Source: a virus
UHGV virus genome: UHGV-0234540
Length of the DNA: 10,963 nucleotides
Reading direction: 5' to 3' (one strand)
The notes under the pieces: generated by a model
The model's input: only the letters and a program-made list of their open reading frames with translations
The model's database searches: none
What the model was told of the DNA's origin: nothing
Translations under genes and position numbers: made by a program
Shown here: positions 2,366-10,835 of the stretch, piece by piece
How positions within the stretch are numbered: position 1 is the first letter of the stretch
Layout: every line of letters starts with the position of its first letter

Positions 2366-2566
2366 ATGACAACTGACGATATCGAAAGCTACTTCGGCAG
2401 TATTGAGAAAGTTGCTGCTTTTTTCGGCATAACAACTGAAGCCGTTTATCAGTGGCGAAACCGTCCGGGCCAGTTAATTCCAAAAGGACGTGCAGCAGAA
2501 GCTGCATATAGAACTTGCGGACGGTTGCCATTTAAACCTGAGCTTTATGAAAAATCTAATGGATAA
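2366..2566 (+). CDS. cro: Cro-like transcriptional regulator (66 aa)
   Basis: Small ORF divergent from the repressor, with an SD. Motif FG...V...FGIT.EAVYQW matches the P22/434-type Cro pattern recalled from memory. Confidence 0.8.
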   Translation: MTTDDIESYFGSIEKVAAFFGITTEAVYQWRNRPGQLIPKGRAAEAAYRTCGRLPFKPELYEKSNG

Positions 2567-2591
2567 ATCGATTAACAGAAACCACAGAACG

Positions 2592-3161
2592 ATGAGGCTA
2601 ACCGTGGGTAAGCATCACTGGAAAGTAGAAAAACAGCCTGAGTGGTACGTGAAAGCTGTCAGAAAAACTATCGCGGCATTGCCGGGGGGTTACGCTGAAG
2701 CTGCTGACTGGCTGGATGTAACAGAGAACGCATTATTTAACCGCCTTCGTGCCGATGGCGATCAGATTTTCCCGCTGGGATGGGCAATGGTTTTACAGCG
2801 TGCTGCTGGCACTCACCACATTGCGGATGCAGTCGCACAGTCTGCTGGTGGGGTGTTTGTATCGCTTCCTGAAATTGAGGAAGTAGAGAACGCCGATATC
2901 AACCAACGCCTGCTGGAGGTCATTGAACAGATCGGCAGTTATTCAAAACAGATTCGTTCAGCAATTGAAGACGGGGTGGTGGAACCACACGAGCAGGCAG
3001 CAATTAACGACGAACTGTACCTGTCAATTTCGAAGCTGCAGGAGCATGCAGCACTGGTCTACAAAATCTTTTGCATTTCAGAAAGTAATGACGCCCGCGA
3101 GTGTGCAGCTCCGGGCGTCGTGGCGTCGATTGCTTCTAATTGTGGAGAAACTAACGCATGA
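2592..3161 (+). CDS. Phage regulatory protein, CII-like (phage 186 CII / CP76 family); start codon uncertain (candidates 2547, 2559, 2592, GTG 2604)
   Basis: ORF directly after cro. The segment [25 protein letters not shown] resembles the recalled CII-family motif. The longest ORF start at 2490 is a GTG only 2 nt after GG and overlaps cro by 77 nt, so an internal start is preferred. Confidence 0.55.
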
Positions 3162-3496
3162 ACAGTTTAACAACACCCTACCGTCGCTCGCAACTGATTG
3201 CGCTTCCTGTACCGGGTGGAAAAGCGAAGGTGGAGTATTGCTATGCAGTGAATGTACCAGGTGACAGGGAAATTGTAACCCACAGCTTTGCAGAGTGGGC
3301 TGTGGGTGATTTCAACCGGCAGAAGGAGACAGTCCTTTGCGACAAGTTAACCGCTGGTTCAAAGATCACTACGGAGTGCCCGTCAGAGTCATTCGTTGGG
3401 AACCGGAAACACAACGGGTTATCTACCTCCGCGAAGGTTATGAGCATGAATGCTTCAGTCCGCTCGAACAGTTTCGTCGTAAATTCAGGGAAATAG
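3158..3496 (+). CDS. Hypothetical protein; only the N-terminal ~60 codons look genuinely coding in this frame (possible frameshifted gene)
   Basis: ATG at 3158 overlaps the upstream stop (ATGA), with GGAGAAA upstream. Translation downstream of ~3335 turns S/N/T-rich and non-protein-like, while the overlapping frame is protein-like. Confidence 0.45.
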
Positions 3497-3516
3497 AGGT
3501 CGGTCATGAGCACTAA
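3337..3516 (+). CDS. Cryptic small ORF (59 codons, TTG start) or the true 3' portion of a frameshifted 3158 gene
   Basis: Frame 1 is open 3310-3516 and translates to a balanced sequence ([59 protein letters not shown]). Consensus AAGGAG (3323-3328) lies 8 nt upstream of TTG 3337. The stop at 3514-3516 overlaps the next gene's ATG at 3506. Not in the ORF track because it has no ATG. Confidence 0.4.
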
Positions 3517-4447
3517 ATTAACCGGCTATGTATGGGATGGTTGCGCTGCATCAGGCATGAAGTTATCCAGCGTGGCAATTATGGCCCGCCTGGCTGATTT
3601 CAGTAATGACGAAGGTGTGTGCTGGCCATCAATTGAAACCATTGCCCGTCAGATTGGCGCGGGGATGAGTACCGTCAGAACGGCTATCGCACGGCTGGAA
3701 GCAGAAGGCTGGTTAACGCGTAAGGCGCGTCGCCAGGGTAACCGCAATGCGTCGAATGTTTATCAGCTTAACGTTGCGAAGCTTCAGGCAGCGGCATTTT
3801 CTCAACTGTCAGATTCTGACCCGTCAAAATCTGACGCATCAAAATCTGACCCGTCAAAATTTGATGCGTCGAAATCTGGCAAAAAAGCGGGTTTTCACCC
3901 GTCAGAATCTGGCGGGGATCCGTCAGTAAAATCAAAACATGATCCGTCAGATAAAAAACCTTCTCGTCCGGACGCTTCGCAACCGGACACGCAGACGGCT
4001 GAACAGGATTTTTTAACTCGCCATCCTGATGCGGTTGTATTCAGCCCTAAAAAGCGCCAGTGGGGGACGCAGGATGATTTGACCTGCGCACAGTGGCTCT
4101 GGAAAAAAATCATCGCCCTGTACGAGCAGGCTGCCGAATGTGACGGCGAGGTGGTTCGTCCCAAAGAACCGAACTGGACAGCCTGGGCAAACGAAATTCG
4201 CCTGATGTGTGTGCAGGATGGTCGTACTCACAAACAAATCTGCGAGATGTACAGCCGCGTCAGCCGCGATCCGTTCTGGTGCCGTAACGTGCTCAGCCCG
4301 TCGAAGCTGCGGGAAAAATGGGATGAGCTTTCCCTGCGCTTATCGCCGTCCGTCAGCACGTACACCGAAAAACGCGAAGACCCGTACTTCAAATCCAGTT
4401 ACGACAACGTGGACTACAGCCAGATCCCGGCAGGATTCAGGGGGTGA
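3506..4447 (+). CDS. Replication initiation protein, lambda O-like (N-terminal HTH DNA-binding domain, repeat-encoded linker, C-terminal domain)
   Basis: 313-aa ORF at the O position after cII. N-terminal HTH-like segment (SIETIARQIGAGMSTVRTAIARLEAEGWL). Internal DNA iterons encode the DPSKSDASKSDPSKFDASKS repeat. SD GAGG 6 nt upstream. Confidence 0.7.
   Translation: MSTKLTGYVWDGCAASGMKLSSVAIMARLADFSNDEGVCWPSIETIARQIGAGMSTVRTAIARLEAEGWLTRKARRQGNRNASNVYQLNVAKLQAAAFSQLSDSDPSKSDASKSDPSKFDASKSGKKAGFHPSESGGDPSVKSKHDPSDKKPSRPDASQPDTQTAEQDFLTRHPDAVVFSPKKRQWGTQDDLTCAQWLWKKIIALYEQAAECDGEVVRPKEPNWTAWANEIRLMCVQDGRTHKQICEMYSRVSRDPFWCRNVLSPSKLREKWDELSLRLSPSVSTYTEKREDPYFKSSYDNVDYSQIPAGFRG
3813..3960. repeat. 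Candidate origin of replication: iterons inside the initiator gene
   Basis: Four tandem ~15-bp units (CCGTCAAAATCTGAC, GCATCAAAATCTGAC, CCGTCAAAATTTGAT, GCGTCGAAATCTGGC; 3821-3880) plus further CCGTCAG-core copies near 3898, 3919 and 3943, ending in an A-rich stretch (3945-3958). Two GATC sites lie in the distal copies. Same layout as ori-lambda inside gene O. Confidence 0.6.
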
Positions 4448-4449
4448 TC

Positions 4450-4938
4450 ATGAGTCTTTTGAATGACGTTCAGAAATTCATTGAAGCCCATCCGGGGTGT
4501 ACTTCCGGAGACATTGCGGATGCTTTTGCAGGTTACTCACGGCAGCGCGTACTGCAGTCAGCAAGCAAGTTACGTCAGAGTGGGCCTGTGGCTCACCGTT
4601 GTGAAGGGGATACACGCAGACATTTCCCGCGCCTGACTGAGAGAGCGCGGGAGCCGGAACCACAACCAGTTCGTGAAACCAGACCTGTGCGCAATTTCTA
4701 TGTCGGCACTAACGATCCCCGGGTGATTTTGTGCCTGACCCGCCAGGCTGAAGAACTGGAGTCAAGAGGCTTATTTCGTCGTGCTGCAACCGTGTGGATG
4801 GCGGCATTCCGTGAAAGCCACTCCCAGCCAGAACGAAACAATTTTCTGGCGCATCGTGAGCGGTGCTTACGGAAAAGCAGCAAGCGCGCTGCATCGGGTG
4901 AAGAGTGGTATCTGTCAGGGAATTACGTGGGGGCTTAA
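4450..4938 (+). CDS. PerC/Pch-like transcriptional regulator with N-terminal winged-helix-like domain
   Basis: The C-terminal segment ELESRGLFRRAATVWMAAFRES matches the PerC-family signature (..RGLWRRAA..W) recalled from memory. ATG 4450 is preferred over GTG 4444 (AGGGGG 6 nt upstream). Its stop overlaps the next start (TAATG). Confidence 0.5.
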   Translation: MSLLNDVQKFIEAHPGCTSGDIADAFAGYSRQRVLQSASKLRQSGPVAHRCEGDTRRHFPRLTERAREPEPQPVRETRPVRNFYVGTNDPRVILCLTRQAEELESRGLFRRAATVWMAAFRESHSQPERNNFLAHRERCLRKSSKRAASGEEWYLSGNYVGA

Positions 4939-5591
4939 TGAGTAATAAATATTGCCGGGCGCTGGTGGAGCTGCGGAACAAACCAGCCCATGAACTGAAG
5001 GAAGTGGGCGATCAGTGGCGCACGCCGGACAACATTTTCTGGGGAATTAACACCCTGTTTGGCCCGTTTGTTCTGGATCTGTTCACTGACGGTGATAACG
5101 CCAAATGTGCTGCGTATTACACGGCGGAAGACAACGCGCTGGCGCATGACTGGTCAGAACGTCTTGCGGAGCTTAAAGGGGCTGCCTTTGGTAATCCCCC
5201 ATACAGCCGCGCCAGTCAGCATGAGGGGCAATACATCACCGGCATGCGTTACATCATGAAACATGCCAGTGCCATGCGTGATAAGGGTGGGCGCTATGTT
5301 TTCCTGATCAAAGCTGCCACCAGCGAAGTGTGGTGGCCGGAAGATGCGGACCATATTGCTTTTATTCGCGGGCGTATTGGTTTTGAACTGCCTGCCTGGT
5401 TTATCCCGAAGGATGAGAAGCAGGTGCCGACAGGCGCTTTCTTCGCTGGTGCTATTGCTGTTTTCGATAAGACCTGGAAGGGACCGGCAATCAGCTACAT
5501 CGGGCGCGATGAACTTGAGGCATGTGGTGAAGCGTTTCTGGCGCAGGTTCGCCAGCAGGCGGAAAAACTGGTCAGGGAGATGGCGGCATGA
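4938..5591 (+). CDS. Phage Dam-family DNA N6-adenine methyltransferase (orphan)
   Basis: NPPY catalytic motif (AAFGNPPYS). N-terminal region typical of phage Dam-family enzymes. Start ATG 4938 overlaps the upstream stop. No adjacent restriction endonuclease. Confidence 0.8.
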   Translation: MSNKYCRALVELRNKPAHELKEVGDQWRTPDNIFWGINTLFGPFVLDLFTDGDNAKCAAYYTAEDNALAHDWSERLAELKGAAFGNPPYSRASQHEGQYITGMRYIMKHASAMRDKGGRYVFLIKAATSEVWWPEDADHIAFIRGRIGFELPAWFIPKDEKQVPTGAFFAGAIAVFDKTWKGPAISYIGRDELEACGEAFLAQVRQQAEKLVREMAA

Positions 5592-5914
5592 CGACGTTAA
5601 CTCAATGCCAGCAGCAGGTGCTGGATATGCTGATTTCTTACCAGAAAGAGCGTGGCTTTCCGCCAACCAATCAGGAGGTGGCAACCATGCTGGGATACCG
5701 TTCAGTGAATGCAGCGGTAGAGCATCTTCGTGCACTGGAGAAAAAAGGCGTCATCACGATAAAGCGTGGCGTGGCCCGGGGGATAACGCTTCATACCGCG
5801 GTGAAGGACGACGACAGCGAGGCGGTCGGGATTATCCGCGCACTGCTTGCCGGTGAGGAAAACGCCAGGCTGCGTGCAGCCCACTGGTTACATGAGAGAG
5901 GCCTGAAAGTATGA
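5588..5914 (+). CDS. LexA N-terminal DNA-binding-domain homologue lacking the S24 peptidase domain (108 aa)
   Basis: Residues 4-68 align with E. coli LexA residues ~4-68 (LTQCQQQVLDMLISYQKERGFPPTNQEVATMLGYRSVNAAVEHLRALEKKGVI versus LexA [53 protein letters not shown]). No Ala-Gly site or Ser/Lys peptidase motifs follow. ATGA overlaps at both ends. Confidence 0.75.
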   Translation: MTTLTQCQQQVLDMLISYQKERGFPPTNQEVATMLGYRSVNAAVEHLRALEKKGVITIKRGVARGITLHTAVKDDDSEAVGIIRALLAGEENARLRAAHWLHERGLKV

Positions 5915-6300
5915 AGCTGATCTTGCCTTTCCCGCCCAGCGTGAACACGTACTGGCGACACCCCAACAAAGGGGCGTTTGCTGGTAAGAGCCTGATAAGC
6001 GAGGCGGGGCGAAAATTTCAGAGCGCGGCGTGTGCAGCAATAGTTGAGCAGTTACGTCGTCTGCCGAAACCAACGTCGGCACCTGCTTCAGTGGAGATCG
6101 TGTTGTTTCCTCCGGATAACCGGATCCGCGATCTGGACAACTATAACAAGGCGCTGTTTGACGCCCTGACCCACGCGGGTGTGTGGGAAGACGACAGACA
6201 GGTGAAAAGAATGCTGGTGGAGTGGGGACCGGTTATCCCGAAAGGGAAGGTCGAGATCACTATCAGTAAGTATGAGAAACCGGCGGGTGCAGCCGCCTGA
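5911..6300 (+). CDS. rusA: Holliday junction resolvase RusA
   Basis: 129-aa ORF. Motif DLDNYNKALFDALTHAGVWEDDRQV matches the RusA catalytic core (DLDN...DAL...DD.QV). SD GAGAGAGG upstream. Nin-region position. Confidence 0.85.
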   Translation: MKLILPFPPSVNTYWRHPNKGAFAGKSLISEAGRKFQSAACAAIVEQLRRLPKPTSAPASVEIVLFPPDNRIRDLDNYNKALFDALTHAGVWEDDRQVKRMLVEWGPVIPKGKVEITISKYEKPAGAAA

Positions 6301-6319
6301 TTAAGAGGAGAAACGAAGT

Positions 6320-7129
6320 ATGAATAATCTGATGGTTATTGATGGTATTGAAGTTCGTCGTGATGTTTATGGGCGTTACAGCCTGAACGATCTGCATCGC
6401 GCAGCAGTAGCATCTGGTGCAAATGCCAGAACCAAGGAGCCAGGAAAGTTTCTTTCCAGCCAACAAACTGTTGAACTTGTTCATGAATTGACCAACACCC
6501 AGAATTTGGGTGTTGACCCGGTGAGTGTGATTCATGGGGGAAATGAACGGGGAACTTATGTCTGCAAGGAACTGGTGTATGCCTATGCAATGTGGATCAG
6601 CCCGTCATTCCATCTGAAGGTGATCCGTACTTTCGATATGGTAACCAGCGCACCGGAAAAATTATCCGGGCAGGCTGCTGACAAGATGCAGGCTGGCGTG
6701 ATTCTGCTGGACTTTATGCGCCGGGAGTTAAACCTGTCTAACTCATCTGTGCTTGGGGCCTGTCAGAAACTCCAGGAGGCTGTTGGCTTACCGAATCTGG
6801 CACCACGCTATGCCATTGATGCTCCTGCTGACGCGCCTGATGGCTCAAGCCGCCCCACGCTGTCACTGAGTGCACTGCTGAAGCAGTATGGTATCCGCCT
6901 GACAGCTAATCAGGCATATCACCAGATGGTGAAGCTGGGGATCGTCGAGCAGCGCGAACGATACAGCCGTACCGCGATTAACAACATCAAAAAATTCTGG
7001 TCGCTGACAGCGAAAGGCTGCATGTTCGGCAAGAATATCACCAGTCCCGCAAATCCGCGCGAGACGCAGCCGCATTTCTTCGAATCCCGATTCCCTGAGC
7101 TGTTAAAGCTGCTCGATACCGTTCATTGA
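6320..7129 (+). CDS. KilA-N domain protein with uncharacterised C-terminal domain
   Basis: N-terminal ~110 aa fits the KilA-N pattern (RYSLNDLHRAA...KELVYAYAMWISPSFHLKVI). Strong SD AGGAGA upstream. Confidence 0.7.
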   Translation: MNNLMVIDGIEVRRDVYGRYSLNDLHRAAVASGANARTKEPGKFLSSQQTVELVHELTNTQNLGVDPVSVIHGGNERGTYVCKELVYAYAMWISPSFHLKVIRTFDMVTSAPEKLSGQAADKMQAGVILLDFMRRELNLSNSSVLGACQKLQEAVGLPNLAPRYAIDAPADAPDGSSRPTLSLSALLKQYGIRLTANQAYHQMVKLGIVEQRERYSRTAINNIKKFWSLTAKGCMFGKNITSPANPRETQPHFFESRFPELLKLLDTVH

Positions 7130-7130
7130 G

Positions 7131-8126
7131 GTGACCGTGAGAGCACTACTGACCCCTGAAATTGCCCCGCGTATGGGGATCGTATTGTTCAGGCCAGGTT
7201 CAGAGTTGATGCCCCTGTTTATGCAGGGGCGTGTCCTGCTGGAGCCTGAGCCGGAACGTTATTCATCTTTCGCCAGTGGTGCAGTTCCGGCGGCATCACA
7301 ACCGCTGGCGGATGATCCTGCCGTTCGGGCCGTGTTCCGCAATGAGGCAGTGATCCGTCGTGCTGGTGGCGTGGAATGTCTTGAAAGCTGGTTACTTCGT
7401 GAAAAAGGCTGCCAGTGGCCTCATTCCGACTGGCACAGCGAGAACATGACCACAATGCGACACGCTCCGGGCGCAATCCGTCTGTGCTGGCACTGCGATA
7501 ACCAGCTGCGCGATCAGTTCACGGAACGGCTGGAATCAATGGCAACGGATAACTGTGCCCGCTGGGTGTTGTCTGTTGTGCGTCGGGATCTCGGTTTTGA
7601 TGACAGTCACGTTGTGACAATGCCGGAACTGTGCTGGTGGCTGATTCGTAATGACCTGGCGGATGCCTTACCGGAAAGTGCAGCCCGTAAGGCACTGAGA
7701 TTACCGAAGCCTGTTGTGCCGTCTGTCTCCCGGGAAAGTGACCTTGTGCCTTCGGTTCCTGCCACCAGCATCATCCAGGATAAGGCGAAAAAGGTGCTGG
7801 CGCTGAAAGTGGATCCGGAGTCGCCGGAGTCTTTTATGTTACGCCCAAAACGTCGCCGCTGGGTTAATGAAAAGTACACGCGCTGGGTTAAGACACAGCC
7901 GTGTGCATGTTGTGGAAAGCCCGCTGATGATCCCCACCACCTGATAGGTCACGGTCAGGGGGGAATGGGAACAAAAGCGCATGACCTTTTTGTGTTGCCT
8001 TTGTGCAGAAAGCATCACGACGAGCTGCATGCGGATACCGTGGCATTTGAAGAGAAGTATGGCTCCCAGCTGGAGCTGATATTTCGTTTTATCGATCGTG
8101 CGCTGGCAATTGGCGTGCTGGCGTAA
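7131..8126 (+). CDS. DUF968 / Ref-like protein with C-terminal HNH-type nuclease motif
   Basis: C-terminus CACCGKPADDPHHLIGHGQGGMGTKAHDLFVLPLCRKHHDELH is a Cys/His HNH signature like the P1 Ref family (from memory). GTG start at 7131 immediately after the upstream stop; start is uncertain. Confidence 0.65.
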   Translation: MTVRALLTPEIAPRMGIVLFRPGSELMPLFMQGRVLLEPEPERYSSFASGAVPAASQPLADDPAVRAVFRNEAVIRRAGGVECLESWLLREKGCQWPHSDWHSENMTTMRHAPGAIRLCWHCDNQLRDQFTERLESMATDNCARWVLSVVRRDLGFDDSHVVTMPELCWWLIRNDLADALPESAARKALRLPKPVVPSVSRESDLVPSVPATSIIQDKAKKVLALKVDPESPESFMLRPKRRRWVNEKYTRWVKTQPCACCGKPADDPHHLIGHGQGGMGTKAHDLFVLPLCRKHHDELHADTVAFEEKYGSQLELIFRFIDRALAIGVLA

Positions 8127-8139
8127 GTGGAGAACGAGC

Positions 8140-8892
8140 ATGAACCTTGAAGCCTTACCAAAATATTACTCCCCAAAATCTCCAAAATTGAGTGATGACG
8201 CACCGGCGACAGGCTCGGGTGGTTTAACAATTACAGATGTGATGGCTGCGCAGGGGATGGTGCAGTCGAAAGCACCGCTTGGGTTTGCCTTATTCCTGGC
8301 AAAAGTTGGTGTTCAGGATCCTCAGTTTGCGATTGAAGGTCTGCTCAATTACGCGATGGCACTGGATAACCCGACATTGAACAAATTGAGTGAAGAAACC
8401 CGGTTACAGATCATCCCTTACCTTGTGAATTTTGCCTTTGCTGATTATTCCAGGTCTGCGGCAAGTAAGGCTCGCTGTGAGCATTGTGCTGGTACTGGAT
8501 TTCATAATGTATTGCGCGAAGTGGTGAAACACTCCAGAAGCGGGGAATCTGTTATCAAGGAAGAGTGGGTGAAGGAACTGTGTCAGCATTGTCATGGTAA
8601 GGGAGAAGTCAGCACAGCGTGCAGAGGGTGTAAGGGTAAAGGTATTGTCCTGGATGAAAAAAGAACCCGGCTTCATGGCACGCCTGTTTATAAGGTTTGT
8701 GGGCGTTGCAATGGAAACCGGTTTAGCCGTTTACCAACCACACTGGCGCGGCTTCATGTCCAGAAGCTGGTACCAGACCTGACGGATTATCAGTGGTACA
8801 AAGGATATGCAGATGTCATTGATAAACTGGTTACAAAGTGCTGGCAGGAAGAAGCATATGCAGAGATACAATTGAGAAAGGTGACAAGATAA
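8140..8892 (+). CDS. Q: Late-gene antitermination protein Q (zinc-finger type)
   Basis: Last gene before the candidate late promoter and terminator and the lysis genes. Four CxxC motifs (CEHCAGTG, CQHCHGKG, CRGCKGKG, CGRCNGNR). ATG 8140 with GTGGAG SD is preferred over the longer ORF start at 8098. Confidence 0.7.
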   Translation: MNLEALPKYYSPKSPKLSDDAPATGSGGLTITDVMAAQGMVQSKAPLGFALFLAKVGVQDPQFAIEGLLNYAMALDNPTLNKLSEETRLQIIPYLVNFAFADYSRSAASKARCEHCAGTGFHNVLREVVKHSRSGESVIKEEWVKELCQHCHGKGEVSTACRGCKGKGIVLDEKRTRLHGTPVYKVCGRCNGNRFSRLPTTLARLHVQKLVPDLTDYQWYKGYADVIDKLVTKCWQEEAYAEIQLRKVTR

Positions 8893-8923
8893 ATGGTTTT
8901 CGCCGAAGATGACGACATGATGC

Positions 8924-8952
8924 TTGCGTTTTTCAAAAAATATGGATAAGAT
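8924..8952 (+). promoter_or_regulatory. Candidate late promoter PR' (-35 TTGCGT 8924-8929, -10 TAAGAT 8947-8952), with the Q-utilisation region expected nearby
   Basis: A -35/-10 pair with 17-bp spacing 30-60 nt downstream of the Q stop and ~50 nt upstream of the intrinsic terminator, as for lambda PR'-tR'. Hexamers are imperfect. Confidence 0.3.
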
Positions 8953-8998
8953 TTTCACAACGATGGGCTTTGTATGTCTACCGTTGATAAGATTTAAG

Positions 8999-9023
8999 AA
9001 CCCGCCACTGAGCGGGTTTTTTT
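8999..9023 (+). terminator. Rho-independent terminator (tR'-like)
   Basis: Stem AACCCGC (8999-9005) / GCGGGTT (9012-9018), loop CACTGA, followed by a T-run to 9023. Confidence 0.7.
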
Positions 9024-9145
9024 GTACCTGTAAACTTGGTGCAGTACAGTAAACACGCTGGTGGTCGTGAATACTGACTTTTTATCTTGCTGGCTTTTTA
9101 GACAAGAGTTACTGGTATGTCATGTTAACCAGAAGGGAAAAAGAC

Positions 9146-9349
9146 ATGCTAAAACAGCAAGATATGACAGAAACCGCCGCCGCAGTCCTTCATTTCTTAC
9201 CTGCTGACAAGTGGGTAACGCCACGCATGATGACGAGAACTACCGGAGTAAGCGAAGCCCGGTGCCAGTTAATACTGACTCAGTTAGTTCTGGCGGGGCT
9301 GGCGAAGGATAACGGCGGGTACGGGAATAAATTCAGACGCTGCCAGTAA
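9146..9349 (+). CDS. Small putative winged-helix DNA-binding protein (67 aa)
   Basis: ATG 9146 with AGAAGGGA SD 7 nt upstream is preferred over ATG 9122. The segment WVTPRMMTRTTGVSEARCQLILTQLVLAGLA has a winged-helix-like pattern resembling the N-terminal domain of the 4450-4938 protein. Confidence 0.45.
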   Translation: MLKQQDMTETAAAVLHFLPADKWVTPRMMTRTTGVSEARCQLILTQLVLAGLAKDNGGYGNKFRRCQ

Positions 9350-9499
9350 TGGCGGTTTCCTGCTGTGAAAATGGGCGGCTGGTGGGTGTTGGTAGCACCT
9401 GCCAGCCATTCGCTCATGCTTACTGGTCACAAGCGAACCACGGCCCACTGCTTTAGCGCAAAAGCAGAGTGAGCCTACCAGAGTTACGCTTACTGATCC

Positions 9500-10552
9500 A
9501 TGAAAAATACTGTAAAAATAAACAGTGTTGATTTAATCAACGCTGATTGCCTGCATTTTATTCAGTCCCTGCCTGATGATTCCATTGACCTGATTGTTAC
9601 CGATCCGCCGTACTTCAAGGTGAAACCCAACGGCTGGGACAATCAGTGGAAAGGGGACGAAGATTACCTTAAGTGGCTGGACCACTGTCTGGCCCAGTTC
9701 TGGCGGGTGTTAAAACCTGCCGGAAGCCTTTACCTGTTCTGTGGGCATCGCCTGGCATCTGATATTGAGATCATGATGCGTGAACGTTTCAACGTGCTTA
9801 ACCATATCATCTGGGCGAAGCCGTCCGGACGTTGGAATGGGTGTAATAAAGAAAGTCTGCGCGCATATTTTCCTGCCACAGAGCGCGTTCTGTTTGCTGA
9901 ACATTACCAGGGGCCATATCGCGGCAAAAGTGACGGCTATGCGGCAAAAGAAAGGGAACTCAAACAGCACATAATGGCACCGCTGATATCGTATTTCAGG
10001 GATGCTCGTGCCGAACTGGGTATAACGGCAAAACAAATTGCCGAAGCCACAGGTAAGAAAAATATGGTTTCCCACTGGTTTGGTGCCAGTCAGTGGCAGT
10101 TGCCGAATGAGGCTGACTATCGGAAGTTACAGGCACTGTTTTCCCGTATAGCGGCAGAGAAGTTTCAGGAACAACAACTGGAACAACCACACCACCAGCT
10201 GGTGGCATCTTATGATTCACTGAATCGCAAATATTCTGAATTGCTGGATGAGTTTAAATCTCTCCGGCGCTATTTCTCCGTATCAGTCTCCGTGCCTTAT
10301 ACCGATGTCTGGATGCATAAACCCGTTCAGTTCTACCCGGGTAAACATCCGTGTGAGAAACCGGCGGATATGCTCAGGCAAATAATCAATGCCAGTAGTC
10401 GACCTGGTGATCTGGTTGCTGATTTTTTTATGGGATCCGGTTCCACAATAAAAGCAGCAATGGCGCTGGGGCGTCGGGCCTTAGGTGTTGAGCTTGAGTC
10501 AGAGCGGTTTAACCAGACAGTGAAAGAGATAAACGAGCTGGTGGGGAAATAA
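9500..10552 (+). CDS. Orphan beta-class DNA methyltransferase (N6-adenine or N4-cytosine type)
   Basis: Motif IV DPPY (LIVTDPPYF) near the N-terminus and motif I FFMGSGST near the C-terminus give the beta-class order. A central insertion (residues ~150-250) contains an HTH-like stretch ([13 protein letters not shown]). No cognate endonuclease adjacent. Confidence 0.85.
9508..9527. promoter_or_regulatory. SOS-box-like palindrome TACTGTAAAAATAAACAGTG (CTGT-N8-ACAG) within codons 3-9 of the methyltransferase
   Basis: Matches the E. coli LexA box consensus TACTGT-(AT)4-ACAGTA at 11 of 12 arm positions with an all-A/T spacer. It is the only CTGT-N8-ACAG found in the window by manual scan. Confidence 0.35.
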
Positions 10553-10558
10553 TCTGGT

Positions 10559-10580
10559 GGCCACGTCAGGTGGCCTTTTT
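10559..10580 (+). terminator. Rho-independent terminator after the methyltransferase
   Basis: Stem GGCCAC (10559-10564) / GTGGCC (10570-10575), loop GTCAG, then TTTTT (10576-10580), 7 nt after the stop at 10550-10552. Confidence 0.55.
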
Positions 10581-10619
10581 ATTTCCATTACACAGCACCC
10601 GCATCTGCGAGGTGGGGTT

Positions 10620-10835
10620 ATGAAATCCATGGATAAGTTAACAACGGGTGTCGCCTATGGCACCTCAGCAGGTAGTGCCGGGTACTGGTTTTTACAGTTG
10701 CTCGATAAAGTCACGCCCTCACAGTGGGCGGCAATAGGTGTGCTGGGTAGTCTGGTATTTGGCCTGCTGACGTACCTGACAAACCTTTATTTCAAGATTA
10801 AAGAAGATAAGCGCAAGGCTGCGAGAGGTGAATAA
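10620..10835 (+). CDS. essD: Class II pinholin, phage-21 S-type (EssD-like), dual-start MKSM motif
   Basis: [26 protein letters not shown]...[19 protein letters not shown] closely matches recalled S21/EssD. Two predicted TM helices. Met1-Lys-Ser-Met4 dual start. GAGGTGGGG SD. The ORF-track start at 10557 is rejected because it runs through the terminator hairpin. Confidence 0.85.

Follow-up and report, generated by a model that had tools for sequence, protein, structure and literature searches.

An excess of Chi octamers in one orientation in the early-right arm of an SfV/mEp460-like lambdoid prophage

The octamer 5'-GCTGGTGG-3', the Chi hotspot of E. coli RecBCD, was matched exactly at 12 positions of a 10,963-nucleotide stretch of the virus genome UHGV-0234540 (the window, which means the whole stretch analysed), nine of them on the + strand and three on the - strand. 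This raises the question of whether so dense and so one-sided an array is a by-product of coding, composition or descent, or whether it is maintained because of what RecBCD does at these sites.

Annotation of relatives, together with Pfam and PHROGs marks on its open reading frames, identifies the window as the early-right arm, from cro to holin, of a lambdoid prophage like SfV and mEp460. The alignment places it on the + strand of mEp460, in the standard lambda orientation, and it has the lambdoid order of immunity, replication, nin, Q and lysis. The genes of the arm are cro, cII-like ymfL, DUF4222, an O-like replication protein, PerC-like yfdN and a Dam-like methylase, followed by a LexA-DBD protein, RusA, KilA-N, DUF968/HNH, the Q antiterminator, a small hypothetical protein, an N6/N4 methylase and the holin. 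The replication protein of this module was indexed in 5,929 blocks of a public collection, and the best-matching complete E. coli genome covered 91% of the window with 97.7% identity. An IS1 element occupies positions 1-141, interrupting the leftward operon at 141/142, and yfdQ and yfdP are deleted from that operon. Because of this insertion and deletion, the prophage copy may be a decaying relic, possibly defective, in which case its Chi sites would be relics as well. The relevant features were as follows.

2366..10835, + strand: predicted early-right arm of the lambdoid prophage, the Chi-rich region (annotation of relatives, Pfam, PHROGs)
2844..2851, + strand: Chi in the cII-like gene, read GCT GGT GG (Ala-Gly-Gly)
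4961..4968, + strand: Chi in the Dam-like methylase gene, read G CTG GTG G
5317..5324, - strand: Chi in the Dam-like methylase gene, read GCC ACC AGC (Ala-Thr-Ser)
5911..6300, + strand: rusA, predicted gene for a RusA Holliday-junction resolvase (PHROGs, annotation; PF05866 in relatives)
6213..6220, + strand: Chi within rusA, read G-CTG-GTG-G
7362..7369, + strand: Chi in the DUF968/HNH gene, read GCT-GGT-GG
7633..7640, + strand: Chi in the DUF968/HNH gene, read TGC TGG TGG (Cys-Trp-Trp)
7762..7769, - strand: Chi in the DUF968/HNH gene
9057..9064, + strand: Chi, intergenic, downstream of Q
9378..9385, + strand: Chi, intergenic, 122 nt upstream of the methylase gene
10192..10199, - strand: Chi, left half of a palindrome
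10198..10205, + strand: Chi in the N6/N4 methylase gene, read G-CTG-GTG-G, right half of the palindrome
10537..10544, + strand: Chi in the methylase gene, at its 3' end, read G-CTG-GTG-G

Exact counting of the octamer reproduced all 12 positions and strands listed in a first-pass annotation of this DNA. The reading frames that it had assigned to the seven coding + strand sites were confirmed codon by codon, the two sites that it had called intergenic (9057 and 9378) both fall into gaps of the gene annotation (the Q gene stops at 8892, the small hypothetical gene spans 9146-9349 and the methylase gene starts at 9500), and the palindromic double Chi that it had described at 10192-10205 is present there as CCACCAGCTGGTGG.

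The excess is real. Chi was the top-ranked octamer of the window (nine copies on the + strand, with five for the runner-up), and dinucleotide-preserving shuffles contained a mean of 0.45 Chi with both strands pooled (maximum three), 12 being reached in 0 of 200. The 24 one-mismatch neighbours of Chi had a mean of 0.29 copies and a maximum of one in the window, the 168 permutations of the same letters had a mean of 0.30 copies with three for the next-best, and the 7-mer GCTGGTG had G as its next base in 9 of its 10 occurrences. The density of one Chi per 0.9 kb, which had been put above that of E. coli in the first-pass annotation, is about five times the host average, given for E. coli K-12 as one per 4.6 kb (Zheng et al. 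2025, PMC12315714), and the Poisson probability of at least 12 copies at an expectation of 2.38 is 8e-6. With nine top-strand and three bottom-strand copies, the window alone falls within the published class of at least eight Chi in the top (active) orientation and at most six in the opposite one (Zheng et al. 2025, PMC12315714).

Amino-acid and codon usage (Leu-CTG, Val-GTG, Gly-GGT, Trp-TGG), together with a G-rich skew of the coding strand, could in principle generate such a pattern, as seven of the nine top-strand sites are coding and use frames with common codons, and GC skew is positive throughout the arm. Synonymous-codon shuffles within genes, however, yielded a mean of 1.49 + strand Chi (sd 0.97, maximum 6) against the seven observed, which none of 5000 shuffles reached, and a mean of 0.20 - strand Chi against the three observed, which 1 of 5000 reached. 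Over three kinds of codon-preserving shuffles, 0.5-1.5 + strand sites were obtained versus seven observed coding sites. A codon-shuffled control had been proposed in the first-pass annotation as one way to refute the excess; because the shuffles failed to reproduce either density or bias, the excess survives it. The same was concluded from an analytic test of usable contexts: in the window, each of the seven peptide contexts that allow sense Chi does have it (1.19 expected), whereas the equally long cro-Rz region of lambda offers six such contexts and uses none. For antisense Chi, three of four contexts are used in the window (0.14 expected) and four of seven in mEp460 (0.28 expected). A codon or composition artefact was thus ruled out by three shuffle schemes and the context test. 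A coding-strand effect was ruled out by the leftward operon of mEp460, in which top-strand Chi is antisense to the genes and is nevertheless enriched (3 of 4 contexts used versus 0.10 expected). Chi polarity therefore tracks the genome, not transcription. Since two of the sites are also intergenic, and Zheng et al. concluded likewise from codon tables (PMC12315714), the codon explanation retains next to no probability.

The octamer might instead be the recognition site of another phage or host factor, such as a regulator or the target of a methylase or nuclease, with its match to Chi a coincidence, and the arm does encode two methylases, an HNH-type protein and several DNA-binding proteins. 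Against this, no conservation beyond the eight bases of Chi was found among the window sites, the sites occupy all three reading frames as well as intergenic DNA, and the octamer is enriched in unrelated modules as well as in LLS and P1, in correlation with a missing Rec module. The octamer is known to act with RecBCD only (Zheng et al. 2025, PMC12315714), and a different reader is highly improbable. Between 8800 and 9600, promoter-like and terminator-like signals did not rise above shuffle background and no Rfam family was found, so that another function for the intergenic sites at 9057 and 9378 was rejected on these grounds. A or G at positions +4 to +7 is the favourable 3' context of Chi (Taylor et al. 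2016); purines filled 21 of the 36 such positions next to the top-strand sites of the window versus a purine background of 0.536, which is no clear enrichment. Individual context scores ranged from 4/4 (sites 6213 and 7362) to 1/4 (sites 2844, 7633 and 10198).

Counts in whole genomes of relatives gave the same orientation. Top-strand and bottom-strand Chi numbered 13 and 3 in vB_EcoS-569R4, 16 and 4 in mEp460, 17 and 5 in SfV, 16 and 3 in an Stx2c phage, and 20 and 3 in LLS, the last equal to the published count, and 0 and 0 in lambda. The range over complete relatives is thus 13-20 Chi on the top strand and 3-5 on the bottom strand, densest in the last 10 kb before cos. In mEp460, the right 27% of the genome contains 11 of the 16 top-strand Chi (binomial P 7e-4), in SfV the right 29% contains 13 of 17 (P 6e-5), and right-arm clustering was also found in LLS (P 7e-3); this clustering toward cos is a measurement on the relatives. 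The excess is confined regionally: the early-right and lysis genes of mEp460 hold nine Chi versus 1.68 expected (P = 7e-5), and its structural genes (22.4 kb) hold two versus 1.18 expected.

The excess also recurs in sequence that does not align to the window, and its positions turn over. Right-arm DNA without alignment to the window (40.2 kb, non-redundant) contains 19 top-strand and 5 bottom-strand Chi. In the cII-like gene, Chi occurs at four different alignment columns across alleles, certain alleles carrying it 42 columns upstream of 2844 instead of at that site. Single-base losses in individual relatives were seen at 4961, where MS6198 has GCTGGTAG, and at 10537, which is replaced by ACTGGTGG in SfV. 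The site at 9378 is found at the same offset in LLS, with 89% local identity, and that at 10198 is kept in LLS at 72% local identity, while at the place of 10192 LLS has TCACCAGC, which is not Chi.

These comparisons bear on whether the array arose by host-like amelioration, in which a prophage of long residence, perhaps a defective one, takes on the oligonucleotide usage and replication polarity of the host, or by unselected mosaic spread of one Chi-rich module. The degraded appearance of the window copy (IS1, deletion) would suit such an origin, and Zheng et al. 2025 (PMC12315714) warned that cryptic prophages may gain Chi as the chromosome does. Among relatives of 95-100% identity most window Chi descend together as one block, so the nine sites are not nine independent events, and a host segment with type II secretion genes in the mosaic relative L016 has four Chi in 6.2 kb, which indicates that host Chi density can be locally high. 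However, the same sites are present in the phage genome records mEp460, SfV and vB_EcoS-569R4, the density is five times the host average, there is no excess in the structural genes of those genomes, and the non-aligning right-arm DNA has a like bias (19 to 5). Chi positions turn over with density maintained, and the replacement segments of the mosaic L009 (5.2 kb, including lambda-type Bor and Nu1 genes) contain no Chi. Amelioration or hitch-hiking is accordingly very improbable, and the one-directional excess looks selected.

What could be selected is suggested by the recombination genes. No RecBCD inhibitor was found among the window open reading frames with Pfam and PHROGs, and no gene for a strand-annealing protein, an exonuclease, an SSB or an anti-RecBCD protein was found in the retained part of the IS1-cut leftward operon. 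Searches by tblastn with lambda Exo, Bet, Gam, NinB and NinG gave no homologue in the complete relatives L001-L006 and L008, and no Rec-module genes appeared in the annotations or Pfam marks of these relatives and of the mosaics L009-L016. The first-pass annotation had expected a phage without Gam and had proposed a search for a gam homologue; the search with lambda Gam found none in these complete relatives, and the expectation holds for them and for the window open reading frames, the window's own leftward operon being cut by IS1 at 141/142.

The window is probably, and with good confidence, an SfV/mEp460/LLS-type prophage arm whose Chi array recruits RecBCD-RecA recombination. Phages of this type would have neither a Red/Erf-type recombinase nor a Gam/Abc2-type RecBCD inhibitor. 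Terminase would cut cos, with the left end remaining covered and the right end free, and RecBCD would load at the free right end and move leftward, encountering the series of top-strand Chi from the 3' side within about 1-11 kb. Recognition of any single Chi would change RecBCD from degradation to nicking and RecA loading, and the phage DNA would then recombine with a sister copy, giving packageable concatemers and avoiding degradation. Chi is recognised at roughly 20-40% per encounter. Many Chi would be needed because a single one is recognised only part of the time, and selection would therefore maintain high density and single polarity while individual sites turn over. By analogy, the Chi sites of this prophage are inferred to act as in LLS; Chi activity, packaging type and RecBCD dependence of the module are taken from LLS and lambda. 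The action of top-strand Chi on RecBCD from the right end was argued and tested for LLS, and the pattern and mechanism are the same in LLS and 62 other phages (Zheng et al. 2025, PMC12315714). The orientation argument of the first-pass annotation, with RecBCD entering at the lysis/cos-proximal right end, is the one tested for LLS.

Chi attenuates the RecBCD nuclease. It is thus conceivable that the sites serve solely as self-mimicry that blocks RecBCD destruction of linear phage DNA, with recombination irrelevant to growth, and their polarity and closeness to the exposed right end fit such shielding as well as they fit recombination. Shielding alone predicts equal or better growth without RecBCD, yet growth of LLS was slower in a recBCD deletion host than in the wild type and was good in recD hosts (Zheng et al. 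2025, PMC12315714), which argues that Chi recruits RecBCD-RecA recombination for concatemers and does not only block degradation. The RusA resolvase in the module likewise suggests that junctions form and need resolving; RusA is a plausible candidate for a phage-encoded partner that would resolve RecA-made junctions. Pure shielding is therefore unlikely. The first-pass proposal of Chi-mediated protection stands as regards selection, and its emphasis on protection over recombination was incomplete, as the growth of LLS suffers when RecBCD is missing.

The excess of bottom-strand Chi is not predicted by a model of RecBCD action in one direction. The use of antisense contexts (3 of 4 in the window, 4 of 7 in mEp460) and the palindromic double Chi would support selection of bottom-strand Chi for two-directional control of RecBCD in the replication-to-lysis region, a doubtful and rather improbable reading. 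If true, such control might rescue rolling-circle tails whatever their polarity, or might let breaks made by restriction or CRISPR be repaired from both ends, with RusA resolving junctions. It would go beyond the model already published, where the right end is the sole entry point of RecBCD.

The Chi trait is already published for lambda-like phages without recombination genes of their own, which depend on the RecBCD of the host (Bobay, Touchon & Rocha, PLoS Genet 2013, PMC3784561; Zheng et al. 2025, PMC12315714). What is added here is small: synonymous use is saturated, bottom-strand Chi is in excess, and a RusA resolvase is linked to the array. These quantitative details (usable-context saturation, bottom-strand excess, RusA link) are what remains of value, and no new question is opened. 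An independent and very common prophage module thereby confirms that Rec-less phages tune synonymous and intergenic DNA to exploit host RecBCD-Chi. For annotation, a dense one-polarity Chi array between replication genes and cos may mark a RecBCD-reliant lifestyle, indicate packaging orientation and predict RecBCD-dependent growth.

Among known systems, LLS shares with the module the lambdoid layout, a yfdR/yfdQ/yfdP-type leftward operon (in intact relatives), a replication module with an O-like protein only, an mEp460-type cI/Cro pair, and many top-strand but few bottom-strand Chi clustered toward the right end, with 9378 and 10198 positionally common to both. It differs in that most remaining Chi positions are not the same, that RusA lies in the nin region of the module, a region in which LLS reportedly lacks any recombination gene, and that LLS is a virion genome whereas the window copy is an IS1-disrupted prophage. 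In Bobay et al. 2013 (PMC3784561), Chi is over-represented in lambdoids lacking both recombinase and RecBCD inhibitor, and in Rec- lambdoids it clusters in the stretch from the replication origin (gene O) to cos, the region that the window spans. That study worked with Markov-model expectations for whole elements and, in the passages searched, does not treat orientation, whereas polarity and synonymous-site saturation are given here for one module.

In the lambda red gam chi+ mutants of classical Chi genetics, as proposed here, top-strand Chi acts on RecBCD that comes in at the right cos end, and it rescues growth of phage without Red and Gam; those sites are single mutations obtained in the laboratory, in a phage whose natural count is 0/0, whereas the array here is natural, is maintained and has at least nine. 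Phage P1 carries 50 Chi on its 94.8 kb and requires both RecA and RecBCD (Zheng et al. 2025, PMC12315714). Chi is its most frequent octamer and it depends on host RecBCD, but it is not lambdoid, packages by headful with terminal redundancy, and uses Chi for cyclisation of incoming DNA. The E. coli chromosome uses the same octamer and enzyme, with one orientation dominant and the other still above random, but at about one Chi per 4.6 kb versus one per 0.9 kb in the window, and its polarity tracks replication direction whereas that of the window tracks the cos end.

The window aligns at 95-98% identity to phages vB_EcoS-569R4, mEp460 and SfV, to Stx2c-converting phages and to many E. coli prophages, and a gene map was built from the annotation of these relatives together with Pfam and PHROGs. 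Since the mEp460 record begins with the terminase genes and the window aligns to its + strand, the + strand of the window corresponds to the top strand of the lambda map as conventionally drawn. The lysis/cos end therefore lies on the right, as the first-pass annotation had assumed, and its reading of the Chi orientation holds. The mapped features were:

1-141: right end of IS1, 100% identical to copies annotated 'IS1 family transposase'
142-295, - strand: first ~31 codons of the yfdR 5'-deoxynucleotidase gene, abutting IS1
near 333-344: deletion of yfdQ (DUF2303) and yfdP relative to E. coli F3 and vB_EcoS-569R4
771-1274, + strand: 167-aa ORF (phrog_3983) between the leftward operon and cI
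1642-2268, - strand: cI-like repressor
3506-4447, + strand: O-like replication protein
4938-5591, + strand: Dam-type methylase (PF05869 in relatives)
9500-10552, + strand: N6/N4 methylase (N6_N4_Mtase, PF01555)

The + strand gene order is cro, cII-like ymfL, DUF4222, O-like replication protein, PerC-like yfdN, Dam-like methylase, a LexA DNA-binding-domain protein, RusA, KilA-N, DUF968/HNH, Q, a small ORF, N6/N4 methylase and holin. The leftward operon is interrupted because IS1 inserted after ~31 codons of yfdR, and the IS1 end accounts for thousands of plasmid and chromosome matches to the window. The alignments flanking the yfdQ/yfdP gap (142-344 and 333-754) overlap by 12 bases, which suggests that these genes were lost by deletion at a short repeat. 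The 167-aa ORF matched no Pfam family. Relatives carry a different gene, of the ECs1072 family, at this position, and a copy of the ORF with 99% identity is present in some E. coli prophages, MS6198 among them; the ORF is possibly a moron or exclusion gene. A 108-aa protein encoded at 5588-5914 (+ strand), just upstream of rusA, has the DNA-binding domain of LexA (PF01726, E = 3e-19) as its sole domain and lacks an S24 peptidase. The replication module (3506-4938) consists of the O-like initiator alone, followed by the PerC-like protein, with no P-like helicase loader or helicase, an unusual arrangement noted for phage LLS and 34 other lambdoid phages (Zheng et al. 2025, PMC12315714). The index of a public collection lists the O-like protein in 5,929 blocks.

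Exact search found the Chi octamer, GCTGGTGG, 12 times, nine on the + strand and three on the - strand, at the positions reported in the first-pass annotation, whose codon frames, two intergenic sites and palindrome at 10192-10205 were also correct. Dinucleotide-preserving shuffles (n = 200) gave a mean of 0.45 copies and a maximum of three, both strands summed. Chi was the top-ranking octamer of the window, with nine + strand copies against five for the runner-up; G follows 9 of the 10 copies of GCTGGTG and precedes 9 of the 10 copies of CTGGTGG. One-mismatch neighbours (n = 24) averaged 0.29 copies (maximum 1) and letter permutations (n = 168) averaged 0.30 (next-best 3), and the signal is therefore specific to the Chi octamer rather than a general G-rich or CTG-rich bias. 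No enrichment of the preferred 3' flank described by Taylor et al. 2016 was detected at the Chi sites, and no promoter, terminator or Rfam element was found to account for the intergenic sites.

The codon-shuffle control proposed in the first-pass annotation was carried out. When synonymous codons were permuted gene by gene in the 14 genes of the + strand (5000 shuffles), the seven sense Chi in coding DNA, against 1.49 in the shuffles (sd 0.97, maximum 6), were reached in none, and the three antisense Chi, against 0.20, were reached in one. Expectations were lower still when codon usage was pooled across genes or codon order was permuted. An analytic test over 7,785 coding bases is more telling: all seven peptide contexts capable of encoding a sense Chi are used, against 1.19 expected, while lambda cro-Rz (7,800 bases) uses none of six. 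Opportunities are the same in the proteins of both phages; the difference is entirely one of synonymous choice. The Chi feature is thus real and looks selected, as had been proposed.

The link drawn earlier between Chi and the absence of Gam also stands. No match to a RecBCD inhibitor or strand-annealing protein was found among the window ORFs, the leftward operon being cut by IS1, and tblastn detected no lambda Exo, Bet, Gam, NinB or NinG in the window, in relative loci L001-L006 or in L008, which lacks gene annotation and was searched in this way. In L001-L006 and L009-L016 the leftward operons encode integrase, excisionase, DnaQ-like exonuclease, DUF551, YfdR, DUF2303/YfdQ and YfdP, with no Rec module by annotation and Pfam marks.

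These properties are those of a published class. According to Bobay et al. 2013 (PMC3784561), Chi is over-represented in lambdoids without recombinase and inhibitor and concentrated from gene O to cos. Zheng et al. 2025 (PMC12315714) described LLS, in which a leftward operon of yfdR, yfdQ and yfdP occurs together with replication genes of the O-only kind and a cI/Cro pair that is closest to mEp460_4F5. Its Chi, 20 in the active orientation and 3 in the inactive one, are concentrated towards the right end. The authors also listed 62 more Rec-less lambdoid phages with at least eight active-orientation Chi and excluded codon usage and G+C content as causes. LLS grows more slowly without RecBCD and well in recD hosts, so that the recBCD+ versus recD comparison suggested earlier has already been made for this phage. 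RecBCD was proposed to enter the free right end and to be activated by Chi for concatemer-forming recombination (same study). The window is an ordinary member of this class, whose published description already accounts for the finding. The first-pass interpretation, protection of linear DNA by Chi, is right in outline, with an incomplete emphasis, since RecBCD benefits LLS and is not merely tolerated. Small additions to the known class are the measure of context saturation, the enrichment of top-strand Chi even antisense to genes, the recurrence of Chi in modules without alignment to the window, and an association with RusA.

Whole-genome counts (top/bottom strand) were 13/3 in vB_EcoS-569R4, 16/4 in mEp460, 17/5 in SfV, 16/3 in an Stx2c phage, 20/3 in LLS and 0/0 in lambda, the last two matching published values. 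Chi clusters in the right arm (binomial P = 7e-4 in mEp460, 6e-5 in SfV and 7e-3 in LLS); the mEp460 structural genes (22.4 kb) hold 2 against 1.18 expected, and its early-right and lysis genes 9 against 1.68 (P = 7e-5). The first site lies ~1.0-1.4 kb from the right end, followed by about one per kilobase to 10-11 kb. Close to the left end, the terminase genes also carry top-strand Chi (mEp460, 662 and 1130; LLS, 689; relative locus L001, 16480 and 16948), so that on a concatemer the Chi-rich zone spans cos, from ~11 kb before to ~1 kb after. In relative locus L016 (14597-20942), the prophage stops within the DUF968 gene or immediately beyond it and adjoins opposite-strand type II secretion genes; this host segment has four bottom-strand and no top-strand Chi in 6.2 kb, and host DNA can thus also be locally Chi-dense, with opposite polarity.

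That Chi polarity is tied to transcription was considered and rejected. In the mEp460 leftward operon, whose genes lie on the bottom strand, top-strand (antisense) Chi occupy 3 of 4 possible contexts against 0.10 expected, and bottom-strand (sense) Chi none of three; polarity follows the genome, not transcription. Bottom-strand Chi exceed codon expectation in the window (3 of 4 contexts) and in mEp460 (4 of 7), unlike in LLS (1 of 6, not above expectation). This excess represents a few events, because sites are co-inherited among close relatives.

Eight more loci are mosaic and carry different immunity, Q, lysis and terminase modules. Across all relatives, right-arm DNA not aligning to the window (40.2 kb, non-redundant) holds 19 top-strand and 5 bottom-strand Chi. 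The replacement segments of one mosaic, L009 (5.2 kb, not aligning to the window), have no Chi. Those at 13972-15911 and 17876-20942 (about 5 kb) encode another Q accompanied by two genes on the reverse strand, followed by spanin, lambda-type Bor and Nu1. The lack of Chi is consistent with the published proposal that modules acquired by exchange from Rec-proficient phages come without Chi. Among alleles of the cII-like gene, Chi occurs at four different alignment columns: at column 279 in the window and SfV, where EcF3 has GCAAATGG; at column 237 in EcF3, 569R4 and L009, where the window has GCTGCTGG; and at neither of these two in mEp460. Single-base changes remove the site at 4961 in MS6198 and that at 10537 in SfV, and the sites at 9378 and 10198 are kept in LLS at local identities of only 89% and 72%. 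Chi density is maintained while single sites turn over.

Both methyltransferase genes of this rightward arm carry Chi on both strands. The palindromic double Chi at 10192-10205, CCACCAGCTGGTGG, encodes His-His-Gln-Leu-Val-Ala in the methylase, and its centre, CAGCTG, is a PvuII site. At this position the Stx2c homologue is without either Chi half, and LLS has the top-strand half alone, TCACCAGCTGGTGG, whereas the window has both.
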